This document shows, piece by piece, positions 15,343 through 52,753 of a DNA stretch of 64,000 nt. How positions within the stretch are numbered: the first letter of the stretch is position 1; each line of letters opens with the position of its first letter. The position numbers and the translations under genes are program-made. A model generated the notes under the pieces. That model searched no databases. It was not told the DNA's origin and worked only from the letters and a program-made list of their open reading frames with translations. Source of the DNA: an uncultured Hyphomicrobiales bacterium (lineage in GTDB: Bacteria; Pseudomonadota; Alphaproteobacteria; Rhizobiales; Xanthobacteraceae); NCBI GenBank assembly GCA_964453555.1, contig CAYVPC010000001.1, forward strand, positions 2,340-66,339, given 5' to 3'.

Positions 15343-15456
15343 AGCACCTCACGCCCTTTTCAAAGAGCCCGTTCTCGGCCATAGTCGTTATATTCCACCG
15401 AATATAGCGTGACCGCGAGCGCGCGGCAACGATCGGCTTGTTCTGAAGGACGTATC

Positions 15457-16956
15457 ATGAACATACCTCTTCCCCACCCGCACCTTAGCGAAGCGGCGTC
15501 GAAATTTCTGGCGCGAAAGCACCAGGCGTTTATCGGCGGCAAAAGGGTCGACGCCGAATCCGGCAAGACGTTCGAGACCTTCGATCCTGGGTCGGGACGG
15601 GTCATCGCCAAAGTGGCCGAATGCGACGCTCCCGACGTCGACAAAGCCGTCGCCGCCGCGCGTGCGGCTTTCGAGAGCGGGGCCTGGACCCGCACGACCG
15701 GAAGCGACCGCGCACGCATGATGTGGAAGCTCGCCGAGCTGATCGAGCAAAACGCTGCCGAATTGGCCGAGCTGGAATCGCTGAACAACGGCAAACCGCT
15801 TGCCAACGTGCGTAACGTCGATCTTGTTCTCGGGTGCGAGACGCTTCGCTATACCGCCGGCTGGGCAACGAAGATTACCGGCGAGACCTTATCGCTTTCG
15901 ACCGCGCCCAAGACGCACGCCTTTACCGTAAGAGAGCCGATCGGCGTCGTGGGTCAGATCATCCCGTGGAACTCGCCGATCATGATGGCGTGCTGGAAAC
16001 TTGCGCCGGCGCTGGCCACCGGCTGTACTGTGGTGCTGAAACCGGCCGAGCAGACACCGTTGACGGCGCTTCGCCTCGCCCAACTCATCCAAGAAGCGGG
16101 GATTCCGGACGGAGTGGTCAATATTGTCCCCGGCTTCGGTCCGACGGCGGGAGCGGCGATCACGGCGCATCCGGACGTGGACAAAGTCGCCTTCACGGGG
16201 TCCGGAGAAGTCGGCAGGCTCATTATCCAGGCCGCGGCCGGTAATCTGAAGAAAGTCTCGCTGGAATTGGGCGGCAAGTCGCCGGTCATCATCTTTCCCG
16301 ATGCCGACGTGAATGTCGCAATTCCGGGAGCGGCGCGCGCGATATTCACGAACTCCGGCCAAGTATGTGCCGCCGGATCGCGGCTCTATGCCCACACGCG
16401 CGTGTTTGATCACATCATCGCTGGCGTTGCGGCCGAGGCGAGAAAGATTCGCGTCGGTCACGCCTTGAGCGATGGCACGCAGATGGGTCCGCTTGTGTCC
16501 AAGGAACAGCTTGAGCGGGTGTCGGGTTATATTGATCAGGGAGAAAATGACGGCGGTACCGTTGTGACGGGCGGCGATCGTATCGGTAACGAAGGCTATT
16601 TCATCGAACCGACCATCCTGACCGACACCCGACCCGAAATGTCGGTCATCCGCGAGGAGATTTTCGGCCCGGTTCTTTGCGCCATAAGGTTTGACGATGA
16701 TGATCTCGATCGCATTGCCAAGGAAGCCAACCGGACCATTTACGGACTGGCGGGGAGCGTGTGGACGCGCGATCTCAGTGTCGCCCATCAAATGGTCCGC
16801 AAGGTCAGGGCCGGTACGATCGGCGTCAATATGCACGGCTCGATCGATCCCGCTCTGCCGTTCGGCGGCTTTCGGCAGTCCGGGTGGGGGCGCGAAAAGG
16901 GCCGCGAGGTCCTCGACCTCTATACCGAGGTCAAGTCCGTGGTCATGGCGCTGTGA
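15457..16956 (+). CDS. NAD(P)-dependent aldehyde dehydrogenase (paralog 3)
   Basis: Internal ATG (MNIPLPHP...). Motifs VSLELGGKSP and NSGQVCAAGSR. Confidence 0.9.
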   Translation: MNIPLPHPHLSEAASKFLARKHQAFIGGKRVDAESGKTFETFDPGSGRVIAKVAECDAPDVDKAVAAARAAFESGAWTRTTGSDRARMMWKLAELIEQNAAELAELESLNNGKPLANVRNVDLVLGCETLRYTAGWATKITGETLSLSTAPKTHAFTVREPIGVVGQIIPWNSPIMMACWKLAPALATGCTVVLKPAEQTPLTALRLAQLIQEAGIPDGVVNIVPGFGPTAGAAITAHPDVDKVAFTGSGEVGRLIIQAAAGNLKKVSLELGGKSPVIIFPDADVNVAIPGAARAIFTNSGQVCAAGSRLYAHTRVFDHIIAGVAAEARKIRVGHALSDGTQMGPLVSKEQLERVSGYIDQGENDGGTVVTGGDRIGNEGYFIEPTILTDTRPEMSVIREEIFGPVLCAIRFDDDDLDRIAKEANRTIYGLAGSVWTRDLSVAHQMVRKVRAGTIGVNMHGSIDPALPFGGFRQSGWGREKGREVLDLYTEVKSVVMAL

Positions 16957-17030
16957 TGCAACGTGTCCGAAAGCTTTGAATAACGAGTCGGCGTCGATCG
17001 TCACCAAGACACTAGAGATAGAGTGCAGAT

Positions 17031-18527
17031 ATGGCTCAAGCAAAAACAATTCCGTTAGCGCGTCACGCATACGCAGATGGCTCCTTCAAGCAAATGCTGA
17101 TCGACGGCAAATGGGTGGATGCCGCATCCGGCAAACATTTCGAAAGCCGCAATCCGGCGACCGGCGAGCTGCTGGCGACCGTGGCCGAAGGCGACGCCGA
17201 GGACATCAACCGCGCCGTCGTAGCGGCTCGCACGGCATTCGAAGGCCCGTGGAGCAAGTTCAAGCCGTACGAGCGCCAGCAGGTCCTTCTGAAGCTGGCC
17301 GATCTGGTGGAGCGACATTTCGACGAGCTCAGCTCGCTCGACACTCTCGACATGGGCGCCCCGATCAGCCGGACCAGGGCCACACGCCTGCGTGTGTTGG
17401 GCATGCTGCGCTACTACGCCGGCCAAGCAACATCGCTCCATGGCGAGACGATACAGAATTCGCTTCCCGGCGAGATATTCTCGTACACATTGAAAGAGCC
17501 GGTGGGCGTCGTAGGCGCCATCATTCCGTGGAACGGGCCTCTTGGTGCTTCCATCTGGAAAATCGGGCCGGCGCTTGCCACCGGCTGCACGGTGATTCTC
17601 AAGCCGGCCGAGGAAGCGCCGCTGACGTCACTGCGGCTTGGGGCATTGGCCTTGGAAGCCGGCGTGCCGCCAGGCGTCGTCAACGTGGTGCCCGGTTATG
17701 GCGAGACGGCGGGAGCGGCGCTGGCCGCGCATCCCGGCGTCGACAAAGTAGCGTTCACTGGCTCGCACATTACCGGGCAGTCAATCGTGAGAGCGTCGGC
17801 CGGCAACCTCAAGCGCGTATCGCTCGAACTCGGTGGCAAGTCTCCCGATATCGTTTTCGCCGATGCGGACATCGAGTCCGCTGTGCCCGGCGCCGCTATG
17901 GCGGTATTCGCCAATTCCGGCCAGATTTGCAGCGCCGGCACGCGGTTGTTCGTCGAGCAACGTGTCTATGATGAATTCGTAGGCCGCGTTGCCGCATTCG
18001 GTAAGGGGCTGCGCGTGGGCAACGGGCTTGACCCGGAGACGCAGATCGGTCCGCTGGTATCCGAGCAACAACTGGAGCGCGTGACCGGTTATCTCAGTCT
18101 CGGCAAACAGGAAGGAGCACGTGCGGTCGCCGGCGGCGAGCGGGCGACGGACGGGCCGTTGGCCAAGGGCTATTTCGTGCCGCCCACCGTTTTTGCCGAT
18201 GTTCGCGACGACATGCGGATCGCGCAGGAAGAAATTTTTGGTCCGGTGATTTCGGCAATACCGTTCAAAGACATGGACGAATTGGTAAAGCGCGCTAACG
18301 CCACGATGTTCGGGCTGGGCAGCGGCGTCTGGACGCGTGACGTGAGCAAGGCGCATCGTCTGGCAAGCGCGATCCGCGCCGGATCCGTCTGGGTGAACTG
18401 CTATCAGGCGATGGATCCAGCCGTCCCATTCGGCGGCTACAAGATGAGCGGATACGGCCGCGAGTCGGGACTGCAGCAAATGGAAGAATATCTCAACGTC
18501 AAGGCGGTTTGGATCAAGACCGGATAG
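17031..18527 (+). CDS. NAD(P)-dependent aldehyde dehydrogenase (paralog 4)
   Basis: Motifs VSLELGGKSP and NSGQICSAGTR. Close paralog of 15457..16956. Confidence 0.9.
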   Translation: MAQAKTIPLARHAYADGSFKQMLIDGKWVDAASGKHFESRNPATGELLATVAEGDAEDINRAVVAARTAFEGPWSKFKPYERQQVLLKLADLVERHFDELSSLDTLDMGAPISRTRATRLRVLGMLRYYAGQATSLHGETIQNSLPGEIFSYTLKEPVGVVGAIIPWNGPLGASIWKIGPALATGCTVILKPAEEAPLTSLRLGALALEAGVPPGVVNVVPGYGETAGAALAAHPGVDKVAFTGSHITGQSIVRASAGNLKRVSLELGGKSPDIVFADADIESAVPGAAMAVFANSGQICSAGTRLFVEQRVYDEFVGRVAAFGKGLRVGNGLDPETQIGPLVSEQQLERVTGYLSLGKQEGARAVAGGERATDGPLAKGYFVPPTVFADVRDDMRIAQEEIFGPVISAIPFKDMDELVKRANATMFGLGSGVWTRDVSKAHRLASAIRAGSVWVNCYQAMDPAVPFGGYKMSGYGRESGLQQMEEYLNVKAVWIKTG

Positions 18528-18657
18528 CTGACATCACAGCAAGCTGAACGACTTCTCGAAGCGATGAGATTTCGTGCCGAGAAGGAGGAGGCTCTGCGCT
18601 GGGCCGGTCAAACTTTAATCCGCGCGAACGTCGATTTGCGTGGAAGGAGGAAACAAA

Positions 18658-19860
18658 ATGTCCAAGGTTGTGTGCGTGCTCTACGACGATCCGGTCGACG
18701 GGTATCCGAAGTCCTACGTACGGGATGATCTGCCCAAGCTGACGCGTTACCCCGACGGACAGACGCTGCCGACCCCAAAGAGCATCGACTTCGTTCCAGG
18801 TCATCTGCTGGGCAGCGTGTCCGGCGAACTCGGGCTGCGCAAGTTTCTCGAAAGCCAGGGACACAAGCTCGTCGTCACGTCCGACAAGGACGGCGCCGGT
18901 TCGGTATTTGAACGCGAGCTTCCCGATGCGGAAATCGTCATTTCGCAGCCGTTCTGGCCGGCCTATCTGACGGCGGAGCGGATCGTCAAAGCGCCGAAAC
19001 TGAAACTCGCCATCACCGCCGGCATCGGATCGGACCATGTCGATCTGCAGGCCGCTATCGACCGCGGCATTACGGTGGCCGAGGTCACCTACTGCAATTC
19101 GATTAGCGTCGCCGAGCACGTGGTCATGATGATTCTTAGCCTCGTGCGCAATTACATTCCGTCTTACCAGTGGGTGGTGAAGGGCGGATGGAACATCGCC
19201 GACTGCGTCGAGCGATCGTACGACGTCGAGGGGATGCATGTCGGCACGGTTGCCGCCGGGCGCATCGGCCTCGCCGTGCTCCGTCGGCTGAAGCCCTTCG
19301 ACATGCACCTGCATTACACCGACCGGCATCGTTTGCCGGAAAGCGTAGAGAAAGAGCTTGGCCTTACTTTCCATAAGTCGACCGCCGACATGGTGCCTGT
19401 CTGCGACGCGGTCACGATCAACGCCCCGCTGCATCCAGAGACCGAGAATCTCTTCGACGACAAGATGATCGGCCGCATGAAGCGCGGCGCCTATCTGGTG
19501 AACACCGCCCGCGGCAAGATTTGCAATCGCGATGCGGTGGTCCGCGCGCTGGAGAGCGGCCAACTCGCCGGCTATGCCGGCGACGTCTGGTTTCCGCAGC
19601 CGGCGCCGAAGGACCATCCGTGGCGGACCATGCCACATCACGGCATGACGCCGCACATCTCCGGCACCTCGCTCTCCGCCCAGGCGCGCTATGCCGCAGG
19701 CACGCGCGAGATTCTCGAATGCTGGTTCGAGAACCGTCCGATCCGCAACGAATATCTGATCGTCGACAAGGGAAAGCTCGCCGGCACTGGCGCTCATTCC
19801 TACAGTGCCGGCAATACGACCCGCGGCTCGGAAGAAGCGGCGAAGTTCAAGGCCCGCTGA
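18658..19860 (+). CDS. fdh: NAD-dependent formate dehydrogenase (D-2-hydroxyacid dehydrogenase family)
   Basis: MSKVVCVLYDDPVDGYPKSY...GSVSGELGLRKFLE...TAGIGSDHVDL...GTVAAGRIGLAVLRRL...PQPAPKDHPWRTMP...GSEEAAKFK is near-collinear with the Pseudomonas sp. 101 FDH as I remember it. GGAGG lies upstream of the internal ATG. Confidence 0.95.
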   Translation: MSKVVCVLYDDPVDGYPKSYVRDDLPKLTRYPDGQTLPTPKSIDFVPGHLLGSVSGELGLRKFLESQGHKLVVTSDKDGAGSVFERELPDAEIVISQPFWPAYLTAERIVKAPKLKLAITAGIGSDHVDLQAAIDRGITVAEVTYCNSISVAEHVVMMILSLVRNYIPSYQWVVKGGWNIADCVERSYDVEGMHVGTVAAGRIGLAVLRRLKPFDMHLHYTDRHRLPESVEKELGLTFHKSTADMVPVCDAVTINAPLHPETENLFDDKMIGRMKRGAYLVNTARGKICNRDAVVRALESGQLAGYAGDVWFPQPAPKDHPWRTMPHHGMTPHISGTSLSAQARYAAGTREILECWFENRPIRNEYLIVDKGKLAGTGAHSYSAGNTTRGSEEAAKFKAR

Positions 19861-19892
19861 GCCCGCGGTCGCCCGAGGTCGAGCGCATCGCC

Positions 19893-19926
19893 GCCACTCT
19901 TACGGCCTGCTGGATGTAAGAGTGGC
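19893..19926 (+). terminator. Putative terminator hairpin after fdh
   Basis: gccactctta / 14-nt loop / taagagtggc: perfect 10-bp stem 33 nt after the stop. The U-tract is weak. Confidence 0.4.
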
Positions 19927-19971
19927 GCTTCGCTGCGAGCGCACTGGGGCCAACCGACGCTCCACGCAATT

Positions 19972-20250
19972 TTAGAGATACACGCTCTTCATCTGCGCCT
20001 CGGGATAGCGCAAGCCCGCGGCAGCGCCGGCCGGCATGGCAGTCGCGATTTCAGCGAGATCGGCTGCGGTCAAATGGACCGAAACCGCTTCGATATTTTC
20101 CAGGAGTTTTTCTTTTCGTTTGGTGCCGGGAATCGGTACGATGTCCTCGCCCTGCGCGAGCAACCAGGCCGTCACGCACGATTACGCCGGCCTGCACTTT
20201 GACGCCCGCTGACGCGGGCCGGATTTCGATAACGTAATTGTCGGACATAG
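19972..20250 (-). pseudogene. Deletion scar: C-terminal fragment of an aldo/keto reductase fused to an N-terminal fragment of an unrelated small protein
   Basis: The 67-aa ORF ...[41 protein letters not shown]... is only the last ~65 aa of an AKR. Directly upstream, in another frame, lies [27 protein letters not shown]. Confidence 0.6.
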
Positions 20251-41582: not shown

Positions 41583-42833
41583 ATGAAAGCATCGCTCGAC
41601 GATATTAAAAATAAAACCGAACAAGACCCGCTGGTTTTTGATCCACGCTTCATTGCGATGTCGCCGGACCCTTTTCCGGCTCTGAAGGCGTTCCGAGAGA
41701 GCGATCCAGTTCACTGGAGCACGAAACTTTCCGCCTGGATCTTGACGCGTTATGACGACGTACGGAAGGCACTGAAGGTGCCGGATTTGTCGGCCAACAG
41801 ACTGCAGCCATTCTTCGAGCAGCTGCCGCAAGGCAAGCGCAGCGCAATGGCGGATCTGATCCGTTACCTATCGTTGTGGGCATCCTTCCGCGACCCGCCG
41901 GATCATAGCCGCGTTCGCGGCATCCTGAACGCCGCGTTCCCGCTGAAAATAGTGGAGGACTGGACCCCCAGGATCGCAATCATCGTCGACAACCTCCTGG
42001 ATCGCATGGAGCAACAATCGAGTCCGGAACTGATACGCGACCTCGGCTTCCGGCTGCCTTGGACGGTGATCATGGACATGCTCGGCGTCCCTGCGTCTTA
42101 TCTCGACGAGGCTGGGCGCTGGTCGAATGATATTGCATTGTTCATCGGCTCTTCACAAAACGCGCCGGACAAATACGAGCGAGCGCAGGAGGCGACGCGC
42201 CGAATGAAGGAGATGCTTGTTGCTATCGTGGCCGACCGCCGCGCTCATCCCCAGCAAGATCTTCTGAGTGTCCTTATTCACGCCGATCAGGGGCGTGGAC
42301 CGCTGACGCATGAGGAGGTGCTGGCGACTTGTATTCTATTGATCGTCGCCGGCCACGAAACGACTGCCTTGTCGATCGGCAACAGTGTTCGCACGCTGCT
42401 CAGACATCCGGAGCAACTGGAAAGATTGCGCAGTGATCCTTCGCTGTTGTCCAGCGCGGTTGAGGAATGCCTGCGTTTTGAGGGGCCGGTCGGCTCGGTG
42501 GGCCGCGTCGTTGCCGTCGACCATGAGATGCGAGGAAAACATCTGAAAAGCGGGGATAGAGTCTTCCTGATGATCGGCGCGGCCAATCGGGACAATAGTG
42601 CTTTCAAGGATCCCGATATGTTCGACGTGGGTCGAACGCCTAATCCGCATCTGACCTTCGGCGGCGGCCTGCACTTTTGCCTCGGCGCCCCGCTGGCACG
42701 ATTGGAGATCAAGTTGGCCTTGGACAAGATGATTCGGCGTTACCCCCAAATGGGGCTTATCGACCGACCGTTGGAGTGGACCAATACATTGGTAATGCGA
42801 GGTCTTAAGGCTTTGCCGCTCAGGCTGGAATAG
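41583..42833 (+). CDS. Cytochrome P450
   Basis: I-helix AGHETT, EECLRF (ExxR) and heme loop FGGGLHFCLGAPLA. Confidence 0.92.
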   Translation: MKASLDDIKNKTEQDPLVFDPRFIAMSPDPFPALKAFRESDPVHWSTKLSAWILTRYDDVRKALKVPDLSANRLQPFFEQLPQGKRSAMADLIRYLSLWASFRDPPDHSRVRGILNAAFPLKIVEDWTPRIAIIVDNLLDRMEQQSSPELIRDLGFRLPWTVIMDMLGVPASYLDEAGRWSNDIALFIGSSQNAPDKYERAQEATRRMKEMLVAIVADRRAHPQQDLLSVLIHADQGRGPLTHEEVLATCILLIVAGHETTALSIGNSVRTLLRHPEQLERLRSDPSLLSSAVEECLRFEGPVGSVGRVVAVDHEMRGKHLKSGDRVFLMIGAANRDNSAFKDPDMFDVGRTPNPHLTFGGGLHFCLGAPLARLEIKLALDKMIRRYPQMGLIDRPLEWTNTLVMRGLKALPLRLE

Positions 42834-43215: not shown

Positions 43216-43845
43216 ATGAGATTCCCGACGCGACTTATCGAGGGTTATCGCGCCTTTGTCGACACCCGCTTGCCGCTCGAGCGCAGCCGATACCACAAAC
43301 TCGCCGAAACAGGTCAGCGGCCCGAAGTCATGGTCATCTGCTGTTGCGATTCGCGCGTATCCCCCGAAGTCATCTTCGATGCGCACCCCGGCGAAATGTT
43401 CGTGGTGCGAAACGTGGCCAACCTGGTACCGCCTTACTCCCCGTCCGGCCTCACGCATGGCGTTTCGGCGGCGCTTGAATTCGCAGTGCAGATTCTTGGT
43501 GTGAAGCACATCGTCGTGATGGGGCACACGCACTGCGGCGGAATCAGAGCGTACGCGGAGCATCAGCACCGGCTGGTTGCCGGAGATTTTATCGATAACT
43601 GGATGTCGTTGATCGCGCCGGCGGCGAAGTCGGTCGCAGAAATGGGCGATCTGGCGTGGCCTGATTATCTCGGTCGGCTGGAATGTGCGTCGGTTATTGC
43701 GACGCTGGATAATCTGATGACCTTTCCCATGGTGGGAGATCGGGTTCGTCAAAAGCAGCTTGAGCTCGTGGGCGCCTATTTCGACGTCGGCACTGGCGAT
43801 TTGTCGGTGTACGATCCAAGCTCCGGTGAGTTCGCGCCAGTCTAA
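43216..43845 (+). CDS. Beta-class carbonic anhydrase
   Basis: CCDSR and HTHCGG zinc-ligand motifs; ~209 aa. Confidence 0.9.
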   Translation: MRFPTRLIEGYRAFVDTRLPLERSRYHKLAETGQRPEVMVICCCDSRVSPEVIFDAHPGEMFVVRNVANLVPPYSPSGLTHGVSAALEFAVQILGVKHIVVMGHTHCGGIRAYAEHQHRLVAGDFIDNWMSLIAPAAKSVAEMGDLAWPDYLGRLECASVIATLDNLMTFPMVGDRVRQKQLELVGAYFDVGTGDLSVYDPSSGEFAPV

Positions 43846-43897: not shown

Positions 43898-45178
43898 TTA
43901 GAACAGCGCTATCCATTTTGCGGCGATGAAGATCAAGAGACCGACCAAACCGCCGACCAGCGTTCCGTTGATGCGGATATATTGCAGATCCTTGCCGACT
44001 TGCAGCTCCAGCCGATCAACTAGCGTCGCGCTGTCCCAATCCTGGACCACGCGTTCGATATAAGCGCCGATTTCGTATCGATAAAGCAACAGGAACTGTT
44101 GCGCGATGACGCGAATTCGGCGATTGAGATGCGTCTTGCGGGTCTCGTCCTCTTGCAACCAGGATCCGATGCTGCGAAGCGCCTGCTCGCAGGTACGGGC
44201 AATCGTGTCCGTATGAGCCGAGAATCCCGAATTGAGGCCACTTTCGATTTCAGCCCACAGCGTCCTCGCTTGCCCGATCAGCAGCGGGCTGGCAAGCAGC
44301 TCGGCCTTTATCCGCTCGGCTTGCACCTTTATTTGCGGGTCGGACGCCAAATCGGCGATGAGTTTTTCAACTGCCTTCTGCAACTCAATCCGCCACGGAT
44401 GACGCGGATTACGCATCTCGCCGAGCGTGGTCAACATACCGTTGAGGACTTTTTCGGCGATCATTCTGTCGATCCATTTTGGTATCCAGCGCGAAGACTC
44501 CTGCGATATCTTGCGGGCCAGATGCTCTTTGTTCTCGGCGAGCCAGTCTTCGCCATAGTCGATCCCGTGCGCGAGTAATGCTTGCGCCTCTCCTTGGGCC
44601 CAAATAATCGCAAGCGCCTTCGACGCAAACGGCGCCGCCGGAATTGCCTCCAGGGCTTGCCGCGCCAGATTTCCAACCGACTTGCCGATCTGTGGCGCGG
44701 GCAACAGCCTGGAAATCCGCGGCACAAGTACTGCCGCATAATCTCCAAGCCGATTCGCATTCGCAGGCTCCGCGATCCATTGCGCCATCGAGCCGACCAT
44801 GTCTATGCGCTCGAGCTTTTCGTTCATCGCCGACGGAGTCAGGAAATTATTGGTGATGAAATTGCCGAGTGCCTTGCCGATCCGGTCCTTATTGTTTGGA
44901 ACAATGCCCGTGTGCGGTATTGGCAGTCCGAGCGGCCGGCGAAACAGGGCGACAATCGCAAACCAGTCGGCGCAGGCGCCGACCATCCCTGCTTCGGAGA
45001 ACGCCCGCAAATACGGAATCCATGGCCAGTCGAGCTTGGCCGCGGTCGTCGCGATGAAAATAGCCGTCATCAGGACGAGCAGCAGAGTCGCCACGGTCCG
45101 CATGCGTCGAAGCCCGAGGATTCGCGGATCATCGGCGCTCTTGGGTAACTGCGGTGAAACCAACATCTCCGGCCCCAT
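43898..45178 (-). CDS. DUF445 (YjiN-like) membrane protein, last gene of the fez-like operon
   Basis: …AFSEAGMVGACADWFAIVALFRRPLGLPIPHTGIVPNNKDRIGKALGNF… and a C-terminal …LQYIRINGTLVGGLVGLLIF are typical DUF445 blocks. Confidence 0.75.
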   Translation of the reverse strand: MGPEMLVSPQLPKSADDPRILGLRRMRTVATLLLVLMTAIFIATTAAKLDWPWIPYLRAFSEAGMVGACADWFAIVALFRRPLGLPIPHTGIVPNNKDRIGKALGNFITNNFLTPSAMNEKLERIDMVGSMAQWIAEPANANRLGDYAAVLVPRISRLLPAPQIGKSVGNLARQALEAIPAAPFASKALAIIWAQGEAQALLAHGIDYGEDWLAENKEHLARKISQESSRWIPKWIDRMIAEKVLNGMLTTLGEMRNPRHPWRIELQKAVEKLIADLASDPQIKVQAERIKAELLASPLLIGQARTLWAEIESGLNSGFSAHTDTIARTCEQALRSIGSWLQEDETRKTHLNRRIRVIAQQFLLLYRYEIGAYIERVVQDWDSATLVDRLELQVGKDLQYIRINGTLVGGLVGLLIFIAAKWIALF

Positions 45179-45214
45179 GAGCCCAGTAAACCGTTTCCGT
45201 CTTCGGAAAGCGAT

Positions 45215-46039
45215 CTACCTCCGGCTCTTGCGCTGCGGCGCATGGGCGTCGTAGTGCCGCCGCACGACGGTTGCTCCGTATTGTCGCTCAAGCTGCCGTA
45301 TCGCGAAGTGGCCCCGGGCTACGCGTTGAAAATGATTCATGAAAAGGACGTTTATGGTCGCGCCGCCGACCGCGCCGAGCACCGGCAAAGCGCTGGCGGC
45401 GGACCGTTCGGAAACGACGACGCCGAACCGGGTTGCGATTTCGGTCACTAGGCCGCTGACGACGGGTGCCGACAGACTGGCCACACTGCGTTCGGCGAAA
45501 ATGCTGGTGGCATCGGCGGCCAATCTGCCGATAAGCGCGCGTGAAGCGTAATAGCCGATGTCGGTTCGCCCGGTGTCCACGTTGGGAGCACCCAGCGCGA
45601 AGACTTCGACGCATGCCAGACGCGCTTCCAAGGTCGACAAATTCTCGCCGTGATGTCTCGCGATGTCGGCGATTGCGCGGAGCATCAGGGTCGTTGTCAC
45701 CGGCAGCTCGATCGGCAGAGCGGCGAGGCCGAAGAAACCGCCGACCCCGCCGCTGATGCCGGCGAGCACAGACGCCGCGCGCCGGGCGGGCGGTCGCTTC
45801 GACCTCGGCTCGATCGAGCGAATGGCCACGTTGAGCGATTTGAGGATCGCGTTCTCGACGACCCTATTGAAACGGTTCGACGCCGCCTTCGGCATCAGCC
45901 GCAACACGCGGTCAATGGGCCGGCCAGCATAATCCGCAAGCTGCGCGGCAAAGTCGCGATTTTCCAGATCGGCGATGGCGCGCTGAAGCGCTTGTTGATG
46001 GAATGGCTGCAGCTTGATCGTGGGTTCGGCCGGGATCAT
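45215..46039 (-). CDS. EcsC-family protein
   Basis: The internal ATG forms an ATGA overlap with the ATPase stop. The product has the N-terminal ...LENRDFAAQLADYAGRPIDRVLRLMPKAA... and C-terminal GGATINVLFMNHFQ blocks that I associate with EcsC. Confidence 0.65.
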   Translation of the reverse strand: MIPAEPTIKLQPFHQQALQRAIADLENRDFAAQLADYAGRPIDRVLRLMPKAASNRFNRVVENAILKSLNVAIRSIEPRSKRPPARRAASVLAGISGGVGGFFGLAALPIELPVTTTLMLRAIADIARHHGENLSTLEARLACVEVFALGAPNVDTGRTDIGYYASRALIGRLAADATSIFAERSVASLSAPVVSGLVTEIATRFGVVVSERSAASALPVLGAVGGATINVLFMNHFQRVARGHFAIRQLERQYGATVVRRHYDAHAPQRKSRR

Positions 46040-48174
46040 TGGTATCGCAGGATCGGACGAATTCCATTCAGGCTCGCGAGGATCGCCGAGCCATTGCTGA
46101 TAAGTGCGGTAATTTCCGGGCTGATCAGGCCTCCAGGAAGTGCGAGCGCGAGCGCCAAACTGTTGAGGCCGGCAACAATTGCATAATTCTGGCGGATGAG
46201 GCCTACGGCGCCGCGTGAGATCTCCACGGCCTTCACCAGTTTCCATAAGGAATCTTCCATCAGCACGACGTCGGCCGACTCGCGCGCGACCTCGGCGCCG
46301 TACTTCATGGCGATGCCGACGTCGGCATAGCTCAGCGCCGGCGAATCGTTGATGCCGTCACCGACCATGGCGACCACGCTACCCTGACGCTGATATTTTT
46401 GGATCACTTCGGCCTTGTCTGCCGGAAGCATCTCAGCGTATTGGCGCGAAAGGCCGAGACGCCCGCCCACCGCATGAGCGACTACCGCGTTGTCACCGGT
46501 CAGCATGATGCTGTTGCGGACGCCCATCCCGTGTAGTCGCTGGATGACCTCCCGGCTCTCGGGCCGGATTTGGTCGGTAAACGGCACCAACCCGGTAAGC
46601 GTCCCGTCGACCGCGACGTAGATGCAGGAATGACCCTGTCGGTCGAGTGCTGCGCGATCCGTTTCCGCCGCCCGAATGTTGATCTCGCTTTGCCGCATGA
46701 ACCGTTCATTGCCGACGTGGAGGTAATAGCCGTTGACCTGGCCTTCGACGCCGAGGCCGATGCGATATTTGGTTTCCTCGCAATAGGGAATGTTGGCGCC
46801 AAGTTCCTGGGCTTTGACCCGCAGGGCCTCGGCGACCGGATGTTTAAGGCGTGTTTCCGCCGCCGCCGCGAGGCCGAGCAAATGCCGTCCGGTCATGCCT
46901 CGCTCGTAGCTGATCACGTCAAGGACGACTGGCGAGCCGTGAGTGAGCGTTCCGGTCTTGTCGAAAATCACCGTATCAACTTCGGCCAGGCGCTCCATAT
47001 GCGCGCCGCTCTTGATGATGATGCCGGCGCGCGCGGCGTGGGTCATGGATGCCAGCACGGCGGTGGGCGCCGCAACCCGGATGCCCGTGCCGTAATCAAT
47101 AATGACGAGCGACAGGAAGCGGTTGAAATCGCCGGACAGTGCTGCCGTCCCGACCGCGAGACCCAATGTAGGCAGGACCAGGCGGTCGGCAAACTTCTCG
47201 GCGTGGTTCTGCATCCGCGTATCGCCGACCGGAGCGGACTCGACCAGCCGCGCGATCTGGCCGGCCGTAGTGGATATGCCGACGCGTATGGCACGCACGG
47301 TGAGCTGACCGTCGCGAATGACGGTCGCCGCGAACACGGCCTCGCCCTTCGCGCGCATGACCGGCAATCCTTCGCCGGTGATGGTCTTCTGGTCGATCAT
47401 GGCGTGGCCGTCGAGGATCTCGCCATCGACCGGGATGATCTCTCCAGGGTACACGACAACCTCGTCGCCGACGGCCAGTTCGGAGGCCGGGATTGAAGTG
47501 ACGACATTGTCGCGAATGACCCACGCCGTCTTGGTTTGAAATTCGAGCAGCTCGCTGATCGCGCGGCGCGAACCGGCGGCGGTCAAATCGCGGATCCAGT
47601 CGCCGAGCTTGATCAGCCAGGTTACGATCGCGCCGGCCATCGGATTACCCTGGGCCAGAGACGCCGCGATCGCGAGCGTGTCGAGAAAATCGACGTTGAG
47701 CCGGCCTTCTCGCCGCCAAACGCGCCAAGCCCGCAGCGCGATGGGATAGGCGTTCCATAACATCAGCGGCATGTTGACCGCCGCCACGACGGGATTGGCG
47801 CTAAACGCCACTAACAGCGACACCGTCGGCAGGCCGAGGGGGGTACGCCTCCAGAGGGGCGGGCGGACGGCCGGAGCGGGCACGGACGACGGACGGCGGA
47901 CGCCGGGCGGCGCTGTCTTCTGATCCACGAGCGCTCGCAGATCGTCCAGGCTCATCAGCGAGAGCCGGCCAAGTGTGGCGCGGAGCACCCCTTCAAAACT
48001 GACGTCGTATTCGATGACGAGGCTGGCGCAGGCGAAATTCAGGCGAGCGCGTTTAACGCCTTGCTGCGCTTCCAGCCAGATGACCGCCGCTTCGGCGAGC
48101 TTTTGTTTTCGGGCGAGCGACGGCAAATACAGGCGAATGCGGCCTGACATGAAGTGCCGTACCGAGAATTCCAT
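46036..48174 (-). CDS. P-type ATPase lacking the CPx motif, with an HMA2-like N-terminal domain (FezB-like)
   Basis: TGE (TITGEGLP), DKTGT (FDKTGTLT), MLTGDN and GDGINDSPAL are present. The TM helix that normally carries CPC/CPH/SPC reads LVIIDYGTGIRVAAPTA. The N-terminus is VRHFMSGRIRLYLPSL...SLVIEYD. Confidence 0.85.
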   Translation of the reverse strand: MEFSVRHFMSGRIRLYLPSLARKQKLAEAAVIWLEAQQGVKRARLNFACASLVIEYDVSFEGVLRATLGRLSLMSLDDLRALVDQKTAPPGVRRPSSVPAPAVRPPLWRRTPLGLPTVSLLVAFSANPVVAAVNMPLMLWNAYPIALRAWRVWRREGRLNVDFLDTLAIAASLAQGNPMAGAIVTWLIKLGDWIRDLTAAGSRRAISELLEFQTKTAWVIRDNVVTSIPASELAVGDEVVVYPGEIIPVDGEILDGHAMIDQKTITGEGLPVMRAKGEAVFAATVIRDGQLTVRAIRVGISTTAGQIARLVESAPVGDTRMQNHAEKFADRLVLPTLGLAVGTAALSGDFNRFLSLVIIDYGTGIRVAAPTAVLASMTHAARAGIIIKSGAHMERLAEVDTVIFDKTGTLTHGSPVVLDVISYERGMTGRHLLGLAAAAETRLKHPVAEALRVKAQELGANIPYCEETKYRIGLGVEGQVNGYYLHVGNERFMRQSEINIRAAETDRAALDRQGHSCIYVAVDGTLTGLVPFTDQIRPESREVIQRLHGMGVRNSIMLTGDNAVVAHAVGGRLGLSRQYAEMLPADKAEVIQKYQRQGSVVAMVGDGINDSPALSYADVGIAMKYGAEVARESADVVLMEDSLWKLVKAVEISRGAVGLIRQNYAIVAGLNSLALALALPGGLISPEITALISNGSAILASLNGIRPILRYQ

Positions 48175-48207
48175 CGCGCTGAACTCCCGATCTCGTCGAT
48201 CCTGGGC

Positions 48208-48801
48208 TCAGCCTACAATCCGCACCGGGGCCAGGCTCGGACCGGAATTTTGTTGGTTGGCGTGCGACTGCCGCTCGTGCATCTCGATAAAATGGTTGAC
48301 CGTGAAAATGGCGAGCGTGACCCAAACCGGCGTGGCGGCGGTCGCTCCGACCTCCAACACGGTCAAGCCGATGATTCCGACCGCAAACACGATTTTCAAA
48401 TCGATAGTATTGTTGGTCGCGAGTTTGATTTCGCGATCGACCTTTTTAACGAAATCGACGACGGCGCGTGCCGTATGGGAATGACCGGCGAGGAACTCCG
48501 CCTCCGCCGCGATACTGCTGGTCAGTTTGTCGAGCTCTGTCTCGGCGCCGTGCGCGGGAGTAGATGCGTGTGCGTCGAAATGCGGCCGGAATGAACCGTG
48601 GAATTCGTCGTGGAGATCCGTATCGTAGCGGAGTACGACGCTTCCGGTCGTCGGGTTGGTGACGATCTCTTCGATTCCGGGAATGACCGCGAAGACTTCG
48701 CTGACCTGCTTTAACAGGTCAGGATTGCCCTTGCCGGCCGGAATTTTCATTCGCACCCGGCCCGGCACCTGATGCTCGATTTTGAGGTTCATCTTCGGCA
48801 T
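48208..48801 (-). CDS. Small membrane protein with an HMA2-like / Arg-rich N-terminal motif and a C-terminal TM pair (FezA-like)
   Basis: IEHQVPGRVRMKIPAG...GSVVLRYD parallels the ATPase N-terminus. C-terminal hydrophobic segments are IVFAVGIIGLTVL and TPVWVTLAIFTVNHFI. Confidence 0.6.
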   Translation of the reverse strand: MPKMNLKIEHQVPGRVRMKIPAGKGNPDLLKQVSEVFAVIPGIEEIVTNPTTGSVVLRYDTDLHDEFHGSFRPHFDAHASTPAHGAETELDKLTSSIAAEAEFLAGHSHTARAVVDFVKKVDREIKLATNNTIDLKIVFAVGIIGLTVLEVGATAATPVWVTLAIFTVNHFIEMHERQSHANQQNSGPSLAPVRIVG

Positions 48802-48961
48802 GAAATTTTACTCGCAGCGAAGGTAAGCGCCCGGCCCGCGGATCGGCGGCGCCGCACGCGCGGCCGGGTGGACCGCGCCGAAACGTACAAGATCGCGCAA
48901 GTCCGTCACCGCGCTCAATCGGGATCGCCCAGGCATCGCGTCAGGCATTTGAGCCTTTGCG

Positions 48962-49384
48962 TCAGCTTTGCTGTCCGCTGGCGGCGGTGACCTTCGCCGC
49001 CGGATCGACGTCGCCTTCGGCGTGCACTTCGGCAACGATATCGTGGACCTGCTCGTGAGCTTCGGCCATCATCTCGCGAGTCTTCTGGCTAATTTTGTAA
49101 GCGCCGCGAACGGTCGATCTGAAAAGCGGGTTCAATGCCGCGCCCATTTTCGGGAGATATCGCGGCACGCAAACAGCCACGACGCCGAGAGCGATCCCCG
49201 GCAACAACGCGGCCTCGAAAGCTGCAGCACCGATCCCAACGACGGCGACGGTCGCTACGGTCGCTACGATATCGCCGCCCTCTTCGGCGCCTTGCTCGGT
49301 GGTTTCGGTCTCGGGCGTTTCGGTCTCGACGTGTTCTGCTGAACTTTCAAGACTGCCATTGCCGTCTCTTTTGGATTTCGGCAT
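48962..49384 (-). CDS. DUF5132-like small membrane protein (acidic N-terminus, TM hairpin, basic tail)
   Basis: True ATG at 49384 after GGGGAGAG. The segment VAVVGIGAAAFEAALLPGIALGVVAVCVPRYLPK is paralogous to the N-terminus of ORF 50707..51573. Confidence 0.55.
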   Translation of the reverse strand: MPKSKRDGNGSLESSAEHVETETPETETTEQGAEEGGDIVATVATVAVVGIGAAAFEAALLPGIALGVVAVCVPRYLPKMGAALNPLFRSTVRGAYKISQKTREMMAEAHEQVHDIVAEVHAEGDVDPAAKVTAASGQQS

Positions 49385-49691
49385 GTGACTCTCCCCGCCA
49401 TGTGGCAAAAGCTATGATCCAACGGGCAAATCCCGTGCCAGATACCGTTCGTCGGCATGCGGGCTTTTCGTGGACTGGCCTACCTTTCCCATTTTTTGTG
49501 ACAGTCTGAACACATGCGGACAATAGCCCGGTAATTACCCCTTTTGTCTCCCGGACCGAGCCGATCGCCAAGAAAGCCAAAGCATTGATTAAAAATAAGA
49601 ATCGCTCACGTCGCACCTTCGTCACGTGGGCGAACCAAATTTGACTGTGAGGCGAGCCGCCTTCCATGACCTCCGAAGCGGGCAGGTGCCA

Positions 49692-50615
49692 ATGAACGAC
49701 AAGTCGAAGGATGACCATCACCTTGCGCAGCGTCTCCAGGACGAGATGCTCGAGACCCTGGATGAAGAGCTTGAGCTCGAATTCGCCGATGTCATGCGCG
49801 ACGCTGTCGTTGGCCACGGCGCAGACGGACGGCCAAAAGACAGCATCGATCGCCGCGTCTATTTCCGGGAACTGCTGCGGTTACAGCGCGAACTGATCAG
49901 ATTGCAAGATTGGGTTGTTTATCAAAAGCTTAAGCTGGTTGTCCTGTTCGAGGGCCGCGACGCCGCCGGCAAAGGGGGCGTGATAAAGCGTGTAACCCAG
50001 CGGCTGAACCCGCGGATCTGCAAGGTCGTTGCGCTGCCCGCACCGACCGAGCGCGAGATAACCCAGTGGTATTTTCAGCGCCATGTGGCGCATTTACCGG
50101 CAGCCGGAGAAATCGTCCTGTTTGACCGCAGTTGGTACAACCGGGCGGGTGTGGAACGAGTCATGGGGTTCTGCTCTGAGGCGGATTGCGAGGAGTTTTT
50201 CCGCACCGTGCCGGAGTTCGAGCGGATGCTCGTGGGGTCCGGCATCATCCTGGTGAAATACTGGTTCTCGATTACCGACGAGGAGCAGAATTTCAGATTT
50301 TTGATGCGCGTTCAAGATCCACTCAAACAGTGGAAACTCAGCCCCATGGACTTGGAGTCACGCCGCCGCTGGGAGCACTACACCCGCGCCAAAGAAGAAA
50401 TGCTGCAGCGTACGCACATTCCGGAAGCCCGTTGGTGGGTGGTTGAAGGCGTCGACAAGAAAAGGGCCCGATTGAATTGCATCCATCACCTGTTGCAGCA
50501 GGTTCCCTACGGTGACGTTCATCACGAACCAATTGTGCTGCCGGAACGGGAGCATCAGCCCGATTACGCGCGCCATCCGGTTCCGCAGGAGTTGTTTGTG
50601 CCGAGGGTGTATTAG
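49692..50615 (+). CDS. ppk2: Polyphosphate kinase 2
   Basis: LVVLFEGRDAAGKGGVIKRV (Walker A), FDRSWYNR, and WKLSPMDLESRRRWEHY lid region are typical PPK2. Confidence 0.9.
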   Translation: MNDKSKDDHHLAQRLQDEMLETLDEELELEFADVMRDAVVGHGADGRPKDSIDRRVYFRELLRLQRELIRLQDWVVYQKLKLVVLFEGRDAAGKGGVIKRVTQRLNPRICKVVALPAPTEREITQWYFQRHVAHLPAAGEIVLFDRSWYNRAGVERVMGFCSEADCEEFFRTVPEFERMLVGSGIILVKYWFSITDEEQNFRFLMRVQDPLKQWKLSPMDLESRRRWEHYTRAKEEMLQRTHIPEARWWVVEGVDKKRARLNCIHHLLQQVPYGDVHHEPIVLPEREHQPDYARHPVPQELFVPRVY

Positions 50616-50706
50616 GCGTCCGTGCGGCACGTCGCCGATAAGGCGCGCCCCGGTCATGCTCGCACAGCCGACATCCTCAAAGAATTGATTTTCTGCGCGG
50701 CAACCT

Positions 50707-51573
50707 TCAGGCGGGTCTTGGCAGCAGCCTTGCCGGCGTCGGGTTGGGCGTGCGCTCTTTCGACGATCCATAATAATTCCAGGCCATTTCATGGCCGAGA
50801 TAAACGAAGGGACCGAGCACAAAACCGGAGGCCGACAGCGCCACCGCGGTGGCGAGATCGCCGACGACCACGAAGTTCGTGGTGAAATCCATCGCCGTAG
50901 CGATGGTGCGAAACGTGATTGTCTTGGCCAACGGGCGGCTGATGGTAAATCCTTTTTCCGCGGGGAGTGACCTCCCAGCGTCAGGTCTGACGGCCAGGAA
51001 AATCTTGAGATGAACGCGCTCGTCGGAAGTGCCGAAATAATTCCAGGCCGTCTCGTGAGCGAGATAGAACAGCGGCCCGGCTACCAGAGCGAATGCCGAT
51101 AGGCCTGCCGCCGTGGCAAATTCGCCGAGCACCACGTAATTCACGGTAAAATCCAGGCTCGTGACGATCATCCGAAAGGTGATGGTTTTGACGATCGCCT
51201 GTTTGAGCCCCAATCGGGCAGGGGCGGCGAGTAGCGTCTTGACCTTGGGCTTGCCGGGACGAGTGAACTCGGTTGGCCGGCTTGCCGCTAAGTTGACCAG
51301 CGGTCGCAGACGCCGACGCAGCCCGGAAAGGTACTTCGGCACGTATTTGGGCGCCAACACTGCGGCGCCGCCGATCGCGATACCGGGGAGCAGCGCAACC
51401 TCGAACAGCGCGATGCCCGCCGCGACCACCCCGATTGTTGCAGCCGTGACAACGATATCCCGCTGCCGCGAGGGCCTCGCTTGGCGGGCGGCGGAGCCGG
51501 CGGCGGGACCGGCCGTTGCGGATCGGCGGCGGAGATCGGCCCGGTACTTCGAGACGGTATTATCTTTCTTCAT
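50707..51573 (-). CDS. Fusion protein: DUF5132-like TM hairpin plus two tandem DUF2061 repeats
   Basis: Internal ATG (MKKDNTVSKY...). The N-terminal segment is GVVAAGIALFEVALLPGIAIGGAAVLAPKYVPK. The two repeats are AIVKTITFRMIVTSLDFTVNYVVLG...YLAHETAWNYFG and LAKTITFRTIATAMDFTTNFVVVG...YLGHEMAWNYYG. Confidence 0.65.
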   Translation of the reverse strand: MKKDNTVSKYRADLRRRSATAGPAAGSAARQARPSRQRDIVVTAATIGVVAAGIALFEVALLPGIAIGGAAVLAPKYVPKYLSGLRRRLRPLVNLAASRPTEFTRPGKPKVKTLLAAPARLGLKQAIVKTITFRMIVTSLDFTVNYVVLGEFATAAGLSAFALVAGPLFYLAHETAWNYFGTSDERVHLKIFLAVRPDAGRSLPAEKGFTISRPLAKTITFRTIATAMDFTTNFVVVGDLATAVALSASGFVLGPFVYLGHEMAWNYYGSSKERTPNPTPARLLPRPA

Positions 51574-51745: not shown

Positions 51746-52753
51746 ATGCGTTTGATCTACCTCGCTGCCGTATGTCTTTTGGTATTGCCGGTTGCGGCCG
51801 CCATCCATGGCTATGCAGTCGATGCAAGAGCGGGAGACGTCGTCGCGGATACGGACATCATGCGCAGCGCAACCGGCATACGCGGTCTGCCCGGGCTGGC
51901 GGACCCCACATTAAAGTCCGGCAGTCCCGCGGTGCCGCGAAAGCGGCCCGAAAACATGATCCGTCTCGCTCAGTCCCAGCAGCCCCTAACCACCGGCAAC
52001 CCGAGCGTCGCGCCGTTCAAATGGGTCGGCAGACTGGTTACTCCGGCCCCAACCAAACAGCATCCCAACGAAGTGTCCGAATGCACCGGTCAATTCATCG
52101 GCCCGAATATCGTGCTGACGGCGGCCCATTGCCTGCGCGATCTGCCGGATAATCCGACGGGTCCGTGGTACGACCTGACCAAACAAACCTTCACGCTCCA
52201 GTACCAGGCCGGCGTGGGCTCGCAGATGTTCAAAACGGTGTGTGGAGCGACCAATCCGCAGTGGGTTTTTCCGCCGAATTACGCCCAGATGACGGCCCCT
52301 CAGAAGGATGCCGTCATAGCACAGGCATCCCAGCATGATTTTGCGATGCTCCTTGTCGACGGCAACAGTCCGACCGGCGCGATGCCGTATCAGACCGACT
52401 GGAAAGGCAAATTCAACGGCGCCGTCAAGGTCGGCTATGCGGGCAATATTCTGGACGAGGAAGTTGTCCAGGAATCCCGCGGCATCGTATTTTTTGCAAA
52501 CGATATACCGATGTTTCCGCAGTCACTTCCGAACCTCGTCGTGCAGTGGCAGAGCGCCACCGACTTCACCAATGGCAGCAGCGGCGGCGCCTGGGTCGCC
52601 AATTTCAGCAACAGCGAAGGCGCAAACTCCAACATACTGATCGCCGTGACCTCGTTCGGCAACGACGCCTACCCCGGAGCGACGTTCGGGGCTTACCTGA
52701 CCGCGGCGGAGTTTAATCCGCTGCTCAATTTTGTCGCCAACGGCTGCAAGTGA
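51746..52753 (+). CDS. Secreted trypsin-like (S1 family) serine peptidase
   Basis: Signal peptide MRLIYLAAVCLLVLPVAAA. Catalytic motifs LTAAHC (His), HDFAMLLV (Asp) and NGSSGGAW (Ser). Confidence 0.8.
   Translation: MRLIYLAAVCLLVLPVAAAIHGYAVDARAGDVVADTDIMRSATGIRGLPGLADPTLKSGSPAVPRKRPENMIRLAQSQQPLTTGNPSVAPFKWVGRLVTPAPTKQHPNEVSECTGQFIGPNIVLTAAHCLRDLPDNPTGPWYDLTKQTFTLQYQAGVGSQMFKTVCGATNPQWVFPPNYAQMTAPQKDAVIAQASQHDFAMLLVDGNSPTGAMPYQTDWKGKFNGAVKVGYAGNILDEEVVQESRGIVFFANDIPMFPQSLPNLVVQWQSATDFTNGSSGGAWVANFSNSEGANSNILIAVTSFGNDAYPGATFGAYLTAAEFNPLLNFVANGCK

Follow-up and report, generated by a model that had tools for sequence, protein, structure and literature searches.

The window analysed here is a 64,000-nucleotide stretch of contig CAYVPC010000001.1 from an uncultured Hyphomicrobiales bacterium. 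It carries a cluster of seven genes built around a P1B-type ATPase (Table 1). Five genes are read in one direction, a polyphosphate kinase (PPK2) gene diverges from them, and a gene for a 288-aa membrane protein lies beyond it. The original prediction, made from the sequence alone, had described this arrangement and these domains and had placed the locus among the fez (ferrosome) operons, whose ATPase is FezB. Pfam and NCBIfam searches bear out the arrangement and the domains. So do independent gene calls on a metagenomic contig of identical sequence (JGI 3300042090, 445 kb; L001/L002): these calls and the open reading frame (ORF) listing coincide exactly with the seven genes reported. By its sequence, however, the ATPase is a member of an uncharacterised sister family of FezB/P1B-6 and lies outside that subfamily.

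Table 1. Genes and elements of the cluster, with positions in the window.
Feature	Position	Strand	Details
DUF445 (YjiN-type) membrane-anchored protein	43898-45178	-	426 aa; PF04286, E 7e-100; last of the co-directional set
EcsC-family membrane protein	45215-46039	-	274 aa; PF12787, E 7e-23
P1B-type ATPase	46036-48174	-	712 aa; E1-E2_ATPase, Hydrolase and N-terminal HMA_2 (CoBaHMA)
HMA_2 (CoBaHMA) membrane protein, FezC-like	48208-48801	-	197 aa; Pfam HMA_2, E 1e-13
DUF5132 protein, FezA/PacL-like small partner	48962-49384	-	140 aa; Pfam DUF5132, E 1e-8
Pho-box-like element 'ATGTGTTCAGACTGTCAC'	49498-49515	-	10/14 against CTGTCAT-N4-CTGTCAT; 131 nt upstream of the DUF5132 start
PPK2 (class I, single domain), a polyphosphate-dependent nucleotide kinase	49692-50615	+ (divergent)	307 aa; PF03976, E 6e-104
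Membrane protein with two DUF2061 repeats and an N-terminal transmembrane/GxxxG module	50707-51573	-	288 aa; Pfam DUF2061 x2
Beta-carbonic anhydrase, convergent with DUF445	43216-43845	+	Pro_CA, E 2e-47; membership in the system doubtful

The stop codon of the ATPase gene and the start codon of the EcsC gene overlap as ATGA, which can be read in 'CGATACCAATGATCCCG'. As the original prediction held, EcsC is, judged by this overlap, translationally coupled to the ATPase. The remaining co-directional genes are spaced by 160, 33 and 36 bp, and the divergent PPK2 and DUF5132 genes have a common intergenic region of 307 bp. A scan for sigma-70 promoters and terminators gave nothing exceeding shuffled expectation. 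The PPK2 protein has a single domain and scores 355.5 bits against TIGR03707 (cut-off 301.8), which places it in class I. In the 288-aa protein, described earlier as a DUF5132-DUF2061x2 fusion, the two DUF2061 repeats are present, and residues 39-93, with 53% identity over these 55 residues (E 6e-14), are a paralogue of the transmembrane (TM)/GxxxG part of the 140-aa protein. The DUF5132 half of that description needs qualifying, as the paralogous stretch excludes the DUF5132 helix proper and Pfam does not score the domain on this protein. The fusion was found beside the ATPase on the window's own contig and in none of the other relatives' loci examined, and we therefore consider the linkage of this gene genome-specific.

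FezB/P1B-6 is defined by D[Y/F]SCA in TM4 and HNxxT in TM6 (Grant and Komeili, 2020 preprint). The window ATPase has DYGTG in place of the first signature and S693-N694-G-S-A in place of the second, in columns that are an invariant H-N in the FezB clade. A census of 1.84 billion cluster representatives, in which the aligned motifs were read in 124 near-full-length matches, returned only D[YF]GTG with [SN]NGS among the nearest relatives (42-67% identity); DYSCA/HNxxT proteins enter at 32-37% identity only. In a neighbour-joining (NJ) tree with bootstrap (129 sequences, 546 core columns), a pure FezB clade of 35 sequences takes in the named FezB-type loci of Rhodobacter capsulatus, Amorphus, Dorea and Collinsella (bootstrap 91, or 98 under a relaxed definition). 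The window ATPase, which had been expected inside the FezB/P1B-6 clade, falls outside it (bootstrap 91-98) and sits in a Cys-less sister clade of 71 sequences (bootstrap 93); it groups with FezB, not with the CPC/CtpC group. The logos of the two sister clades have in common a D...[R/K] pair in TM4 (K in FezB) and VDxLD in TM1, to which FezB adds the TM4 Cys and the TM6 His.

Four colour groups are distinguished in Supplementary Table 1 of Grant and Komeili: FezB (306 entries, including RPA2333), D[YFL]GTG/[SN]NGS (100 entries), a CtpC type with ACPCA/HNxSS and a FezH type with ACPCATV/HIxHT. The second of these (colour #FDFEE9) is listed only; it is uncharacterised and its gene neighbourhood is undescribed. 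Exact DYGTGIR/SNGSA motifs occur there in Bradyrhizobium sp. BTAi1 (BBta_1568), Bradyrhizobium OHSU_III, Methylocystis parvus (O5O_01572) and Paraburkholderia acidipaludis. Because its motifs are identical to those of these entries, the window ATPase belongs to this listed but uncharacterised group. Identity with FezH was rejected on the motifs of that type.

TM4 of the window ATPase reads IIDYGTGIRVAAP, TM5 ...AGLN and TM6 ALISNGSA. In the HMMER alignment the CPC motif of CopA falls on Y361-G362-T363, within I-I-D-Y-G-T-G at residues 358-364, which agrees with the earlier description of the pump as CPx-less. The invariant columns of the per-clade logos define the ion-site residues as D162 and D165 in TM1, D360, T363, G364 and R366 in TM4, N671 in TM5, and S693, N694 and G695 in TM6; no Cys, His or Met is found among the clade's ion-site columns. 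Putative oxygen ligands are Asp360 and Thr363 (unwound TM4), Asn671, Ser693/Asn694 and Asp162/Asp165. In the AlphaFold2 (AF2) model of the ATPase (mean predicted local distance difference test score, pLDDT, 78.9) the TM4 helix is broken at residues 359-362 (I-D-Y-G), where P-type pumps unwind for ion binding. The closest PDB fold found by Foldseek is CopA 7r0g (TM-score 0.75/0.81), so the model has a normal P1B fold. The general P1B hallmarks TGE, DKTGT, HP, MLTGD and GDGINDSPAL are all present, and the TIGR01525 score is 510 bits (cut-off 346). None of TGE, DKTGT, HP and GDGINDSPAL is damaged, and an active, catalytically competent pump is therefore expected. A degenerate or inactive pump was ruled out, the catalytic motifs being invariant throughout the clade.

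On grounds of coordination chemistry, a site made of oxygen ligands only argues against Cu+, Zn2+, Cd2+ and Co2+, the substrates of known P1B groups, and fits the harder ions Ca2+, Mg2+, Mn2+ and possibly Fe2+. With neither Cys nor His in its ion site, the pump may not handle iron at all, and its annotation as a 'Cu2+-exporting ATPase' is probably wrong.

The ATPase and the 197-aa protein begin with related modules, H7-x3-G11-R12-I-R14...P18 in the former (H7-FMS-G-R12-I-R14) and H10-x3-G14-R15-V-R17...P21 in the latter. The H-x3-G-R-[IV]-R-...-P module to which the original prediction had drawn attention is thus real: the two 70-aa domains align with 22% identity (E 3e-7), and both match Pfam HMA_2 (E 1e-8 for the ATPase). 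H7, R12 and R14 of the ATPase are invariant in the family alignments and constitute an N-terminal R-rich motif, which its authors declared non-specific to FezB (Grant and Komeili, 2020 preprint). The CoBaHMA (Conserved Basic residues HMA) domain, first described from calcyanin, combines an HMA-like fold with an extra strand β0 that bears a conserved His, and has basic residues in β1/β2 (PMC8890360); Pfam HMA_2 (PF19991) was equated with it in a later preprint. The AF2 model of the ATPase has this fold, with strands at residues 4-9 and 12-16, a helix at 24-35, strands at 40-46 and 51-56 and a helix at 58-73 (β0-β1-α-β-β-α over residues 4-73). The shared H-x3-G-R-[IV]-R module is therefore a CoBaHMA domain and the same as the 'R-rich motif' of Grant and Komeili.

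For the 197-aa protein the same β0-β1-α-β-β-α order is predicted, followed by helices at 136-150 and 158-182, so that it resembles FezC-type proteins in having an N-terminal R-rich motif and two predicted C-terminal helices. Since the alignment was limited to close homologues, its model is of low confidence (pLDDT 49.7), and it was used for the secondary-structure pattern alone. The protein has a conserved His-rich linker, and after its CoBaHMA domain it carries a cluster of histidines (H64, H68, H74, H78, H84, 'HSH' at 107-109 and 'NH' at 169-170 in the second membrane helix) that is invariant among close relatives and in part retained in distant ones. From its sequence this cluster could bind a transition metal, which conflicts with a pump whose own site offers oxygen ligands only.

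The 140-aa DUF5132 protein has an acidic N-terminus, a single TM segment containing 'ALLPGIALG' and a long acidic/His helix, 'AEAHEQVHDIVAEVHAE'. The GxxxG motif typical of FezA proteins is present as 'LLPGIALG' here and as 'LLPGIAIG' in the 288-aa protein, and a small single-pass glycine-motif protein in an operon with a P-type ATPase is equally the pattern of PacL. The fez operon of R. palustris contains FezB (RPA2333), the GxxxG proteins RPA2334 and RPA2336, one group-4 protein and the R-rich proteins RPA2337 and RPA2338 (Grant and Komeili tables), and we found a GxxxG protein of 80-100 aa directly upstream in eight FezB-type loci. A hidden Markov model (HMM) built from the DUF5132 neighbours of DxGTG pumps matches the RPA2334-like protein beside FezB in locus L004 (E 7.6e-5). 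Between the DUF5132 and FezA-like alignments hhalign matched the C-terminal helix, where both have the motif D[IL][LV]AEAK, with a probability of 85% (E 6e-6). These matches are suggestive of homology between DUF5132 and FezA-type proteins, though the similarity is remote and falls short of conclusive. Some FezA-group proteins are annotated with DUF1490, the PacL domain (Grant and Komeili tables); among 11 DUF5132/FezA-like proteins none matched DUF1490 at E<=1. The DUF5132 helix of the window protein is acidic and His-rich, and His-rich accessory proteins would be a better fit for Mn2+ or Fe2+ than for Ca2+ or Mg2+.

Loci of relatives were collected by contig look-ups (L083-L088) and by a metagenome scan with the back-translated pattern D[YF][GA]TG[IVM]R..[AS][AS]P (80 loci). 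A scan of genome contigs settled on generic P-type patterns (DKTGTLT, GDGIND) and yielded mostly unrelated P1B ATPases and no named close relatives, together with 11 FezB-type loci for comparison. Neighbours were identified on all six-frame ORFs with HMMs made from the window proteins and their neighbours; denominators are loci with enough flank to test, and loci were divided by ATPase length into those of up to 760 aa, the window's class, and those above. In the window's class DUF5132 lies upstream on the same strand in 30/32 loci and a CoBaHMA-hairpin gene adjoins the ATPase upstream in 33/35, compared with 3/12 and 5/13 for the longer ATPases. EcsC follows downstream in 11 of 30 loci (and in L083), DUF445 occurs in 6/18, PPK2 in 4/21 and beta-carbonic anhydrase in 3/12; the respective counts for the longer class are 0/14, 0/11, 0/13 and 0/9. 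Na_Ca_ex shows the opposite distribution (0/20 in the window's class, 4/13 in the other). Homologues of EcsC, DUF445 and PPK2 were found in 0/11 FezB-type loci. The invariant core is thus the small Gly-zipper protein, usually the CoBaHMA protein, and the ATPase; the remainder varies by lineage, and EcsC, DUF445 and PPK2 are lineage-specific additions, here in a lineage of Xanthobacteraceae.

PPK2 occupies the divergent upstream position not only in the window locus L001 but also in L089, L097, L114 and L146, and the count of 4/21 is taken from these five loci. A second arrangement is seen in L083 (Bradyrhizobium sp. 2TAF24-like, 71% ATPase identity), where PPK2 is downstream, on the other side; between EcsC and PPK2, in the position of DUF445 in the window, this locus has a 372-aa protein without Pfam match on the opposite strand (11961-13079). 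The pump of L084 (66% ATPase identity) is surrounded at 2800-20151 by transposase/integrase genes (rve, DDE_Tnp_1, Mu-transposase C) and fragments of a type IV secretion system, surroundings which suggest that the module may be horizontally mobile. More distant relatives have other companions. Near the pump of L086 (45% identity; 9001-20190) are genes for a ParA/MipZ-like ATPase, Na_H_Exchanger, Na_Ca_ex, CBS, PsiE and Ppx-GppA, and Ppx is also near the pump in L109. In L088 (42% ATPase identity; 4410-11637) two Na_Ca_ex genes and an LCIB-type carbonic anhydrase gene are directly followed by several DUF5132-like genes and by CoBaHMA and ATPase genes; two genes, one on each side of the ATPase, scored as DUF5132 and a third did so more weakly, and the set looks suited to intracellular Ca-carbonate formation.

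According to RefSeq annotation the pump adjoins cax on the Nostoc flagelliforme plasmid pNFSY07, and on a Gloeothece PCC 7822 plasmid it is accompanied by DUF5132, DUF1269 and a degenerate CoBaHMA pseudo-ATPase. The latter (L209, Gloeothece verrucosa PCC 7822 plasmid Cy782201, 12825-14393) is a 522-aa 'HMA2 domain-containing protein' that reads LVFAAKS instead of DKTGT, retains 'INGGSA' in TM6 and adjoins DUF5132, a lipid kinase and DUF1269. On a Deinococcus peraridilitoris plasmid a DUF5132/FezA-like gene is immediately upstream of the pump. As regards the window's own flanks, the beta-carbonic anhydrase adjoins the cluster only in the closest relatives, L097 and L146; a cytochrome P450 gene lies beyond it (41583-42833). 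Just past the DUF2061 gene is a gene for a 335-aa trypsin-like serine protease (51746-52753), with DUF4189 and lipocalin-like genes close by; the protease is probably unrelated to the cluster.

When the sequences upstream of the DUF5132 gene were aligned for eight relatives, a single block, ...TGT.A....CTGTCAT.AA, proved conserved; it matches the PhoB box (a direct CTGTCAT repeat with an 11-bp period). When both strands were scored against CTGTCAT-N4-CTGTCAT, 9/29 upstream regions reached at least 11/14 (1.3 expected from random 400-bp segments; 2/44 control intergenic regions) and 6/29 at least 12/14 (0.24 expected; 0/44 controls). Several of the loci counted are closely related, the sets of controls are small, and what matches a consensus is a predicted site. 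The best same-strand sites score 10-13 and are found 86-133 nt upstream of the start codon. Aligned sites are present in L160, L091, L104, L114, L155 and L087, and the relatives reach 12-13/14. The FNR/FixK, Irr iron control element (ICE), Fur and Mur consensus sequences were not enriched in the 29 upstream regions, such consensus scans being weak tests; a mild excess of an AT-rich Irr motif is attributed to intergenic composition. No iron genes were found within ~10 kb on either side of the cluster, and neither the context nor the upstream motifs link it to iron or anaerobiosis.

We tentatively favour a model, to which we give somewhat less than an even chance, in which the locus encodes a ferrosome-like, non-FezB module, linked to phosphate, for the sequestration or export of a divalent cation. 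The small proteins would organise a membrane patch or vesicle, with the basic faces of the CoBaHMA domains docked on anionic lipid. The ATPase would move a hard-to-borderline divalent cation (Mn2+, Fe2+, Ca2+ and Mg2+ are all possible) from the cytoplasm into the compartment, where it would be retained with phosphate or polyphosphate. Control would be by phosphate, through a PhoB-type regulator, not by iron or oxygen. Which membrane takes part and which cation is carried are both what we infer; in more general terms, we infer a non-thiophilic divalent-cation module of the ferrosome/effluxosome type that is tied to phosphate metabolism by PPK2, Ppx and the Pho-box. The original assignment to the fez-type loci survives in part. 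The ground plan of fez, the sister relationship of the ATPases, the retention of the small genes by relatives and the likeness of DUF5132 to FezA all speak for it, but the ATPase is not FezB and lacks both TM motifs. Nor does the context agree, with EcsC, DUF445 and PPK2 absent from the FezB-type loci compared and with Pho-box-like sites enriched where those of Fur, Irr and FNR/FixK are not. The prediction was to be given up if the ATPase lay outside the FezB clade and its relatives lacked the linked small genes; the ATPase does lie outside, whereas the relatives keep the genes.

Several points weigh against the model that we favour. The window's own Pho-box-like site (49515-49498) is weak although it is at the aligned position, and the motif statistics rest on related loci and small control sets. 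Linkage to PPK2 is limited to near relatives and one further lineage. Ferritin-like, Feo, phosphate-transporter and lipid-remodelling genes are all absent from the annotated neighbours over ~10 kb on each side. The clues to the cargo conflict, in that the oxygen-only TM site points to Ca/Mg/Mn and the His-rich accessory proteins to a transition metal. The ATPase clade is uncharacterised and known from sequence alone. Finally, the combination of a small protein with such an ATPase also serves plasma-membrane efflux in mycobacteria (PacL/CtpC), and the design itself therefore implies no organelle.

This last point leads to a second explanation, which is possible but which we regard as doubtful, namely an exporter of the effluxosome type. 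DUF5132 would, like PacL, serve the ATPase as a chaperone or scaffold and gather it into clusters in the cytoplasmic membrane, and excess cation would be passed to the periplasm with no compartment involved, for example Mn2+, Ca2+ or Mg2+ freed when polyphosphate is consumed under phosphate limitation. PacL proteins are indeed small single-pass glycine-groove proteins, always operonic with a P-type ATPase, that organise efflux platforms (PMC13043812, PMC9374683), CtpC has the same R-rich N-terminus (Grant and Komeili), and the PacL domain DUF1490 is annotated on some FezA-group proteins. The Nostoc plasmid copy lies <=~9 kb from a gene annotated as a manganese efflux pump, and genes for a metal ABC transporter and a metal-dependent regulator are ~6 kb away from the Deinococcus plasmid copy. 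However, every DUF5132 protein searched failed to match DUF1490 even at E<=1, PacL is reported in Actinobacteria only, and the ATPase groups with FezB rather than with CPC/CtpC. Among the material examined, fez clusters and the surroundings of ccyA, which both make inclusions, were seen to contain stand-alone CoBaHMA-hairpin proteins. We rank storage slightly above efflux because CoBaHMA-hairpin and DUF5132/FezA-type proteins accompany these two inclusion-forming systems (fez, ccyA) and because the pump groups with FezB, not CtpC.

A more specific form of the storage model strikes us as rather unlikely. It would make the locus the alphaproteobacterial form of a third, hitherto undescribed kind of CoBaHMA-ATPase system beside ferrosomes and effluxosomes, one by which aerobic soil bacteria would keep a divalent cation together with phosphate or polyphosphate in a lipid-bounded store regulated by phosphate. 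DUF5132 (FezA-like), CoBaHMA-hairpin (FezC-like), EcsC and DUF445 proteins would surround its Cys-less P1B pump, and in other phyla the related systems would serve to form carbonate inclusions, coupled instead to carbonic anhydrase and Ca2+/H+ exchangers.

It is distinctly unlikely that the locus is a true iron ferrosome, in which the pump would load Fe2+ into a lipid-bounded iron-phosphate granule despite its divergent ion site. The sister relationship to FezB, the conserved FezA-like and FezC-like partners and the shared TM4 D...[R/K] pair and TM1 VDxLD are in keeping with this idea, and the His cluster of the 197-aa protein could, by its residues, bind Fe2+. Since the ferrosome mineral is ferrous phosphate, a phosphate link would not be out of place either. 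FezB hosts are mostly strict or facultative anaerobes (Grant and Komeili, 2020 preprint). The named hosts of the window's motif type, by contrast, include Bradyrhizobium, Methylocystis and Paraburkholderia, and the P1B-6 signatures are both missing, with their Cys and His. Sites for Fur, Irr-ICE and FNR/FixK are not enriched in the 29 upstream regions, and iron-homeostasis genes are absent from the annotated neighbours over ~10 kb on each side. Bradyrhizobium, Methylocystis and Paraburkholderia are aerobes. The iron reading is ranked lower because both defining motifs are absent, iron-related context and regulation are lacking and the named hosts are aerobes.

The weakest proposal, very unlikely for the window, is that the pump aids or replaces Ca2+/H+ exchange and loads Ca2+ into inclusions (amorphous Ca-carbonate or Ca-polyphosphate) with the help of carbonic anhydrase: it can draw on Na_Ca_ex/CAX genes within a few kb of the pump in 4/13 loci of the longer class and in Nostoc flagelliforme, on the LCIB-type carbonic anhydrase of L088, on the DUF5132 and CoBaHMA proteins that flank ccyA and cax in Microcystis, on the oxygen-only ion site and on the beta-carbonic anhydrase that adjoins the cluster in the window, but Na_Ca_ex is absent from all 20 loci of the window's own class, carbonic anhydrase is linked in the closest relatives only, no calcyanin-like gene was noticed among the Pfam-annotated neighbours (no search was aimed at calcyanin) and the His-rich accessory proteins are ill-suited to Ca2+.

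To our knowledge, ferrosomes and mycobacterial effluxosomes are the only two experimentally studied pairings of a small Gly-zipper protein with an R-rich (CoBaHMA) P1B ATPase. The locus described here represents a large third branch, with 100 entries in the table of Grant and Komeili and thousands of metagenomic relatives, many of them from soil Xanthobacteraceae. This clade is visible in their 2020 supplementary table, and we came across no account of its function, of the partners that are conserved with it or of the contexts (phosphate, Ca exchangers) in which it occurs. Three features set it apart: an ion site without soft ligands, partners conserved as in fez, and a context of phosphate and polyphosphate here, and of Ca2+/H+ exchange in other lineages, rather than of iron. 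Should the system form a compartment, the range of organelles of the ferrosome type would come to include aerobes and further cargoes, and the field of ferrosomes would be joined to that of intracellular Ca-carbonate (CoBaHMA/DUF5132); should it prove to be an exporter, a P1B subgroup that handles a hard cation would be defined.

Comparison with known systems begins with the ccyA neighbourhood of Microcystis. The gene ccyA encodes calcyanin, a marker of intracellular Ca-carbonate inclusions, and ccyA and cax have DUF5132 and CoBaHMA-hairpin proteins as flanking neighbours, which are co-expressed with this pair (bioRxiv 10.1101/2024.07.07.602159). The likeness lies in a pair of DUF5132 proteins and in CoBaHMA proteins that have a helical hairpin at the C-terminus, clustered and co-expressed with a biomineralisation marker, and in the CoBaHMA family itself, as HMA_2 has the conserved β0 His and basic β1 residues (PMC8890360). 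Unlike Microcystis, the window has no cax, and no calcyanin among its Pfam-annotated neighbours; Microcystis as described has no CoBaHMA-ATPase, and its mineral is Ca-carbonate.

The PacL/Ctp effluxosomes of Mycobacterium tuberculosis (PMC9374683, PMC13043812) also pair a small single-pass glycine-groove protein, with an acidic/Ala-rich cytoplasmic helix, with an R-rich P1B ATPase in one operon, and a further likeness may lie in metal-binding residues near the C-terminus of the small protein. They differ in that CtpC has CPC/HN(A/L)SS and PacL, which is reported from Actinobacteria only, is a DUF1490 protein of a kind undetected here. Moreover, the PacL operon as described consists of pacL and the ATPase only, without a stand-alone CoBaHMA-hairpin protein, and it serves to expel Zn, Cd and Cu at the plasma membrane.

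The fez clusters (Grant and Komeili, 2020 preprint) resemble the window in the R-rich/CoBaHMA N-terminus of the ATPase, in the small GxxxG proteins and R-rich two-TM proteins of the operon, and in ATPases that form sister clades and have in common TM4 D-[YF]...[R/K], without proline, and TM1 VDxLD. They are unlike it in their TM4 and TM6 motifs, D[Y/F]SCA and HNxxT as against DYGTG and SNGSA, the latter without Cys or His; the window ATPase is outside the FezB clade, and EcsC, DUF445 and PPK2 were unseen in the fez clusters examined. Control in R. palustris is reported to be linked to FNR and Irr, whereas Pho-box-like sites are found here, in aerobic soil bacteria and for a module that is not known to make granules. 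With the D[YFL]GTG/[SN]NGS group in the same authors' table, by contrast, the window ATPase is identical in its TM4 and TM6 motifs and in the type of its R-rich motif.

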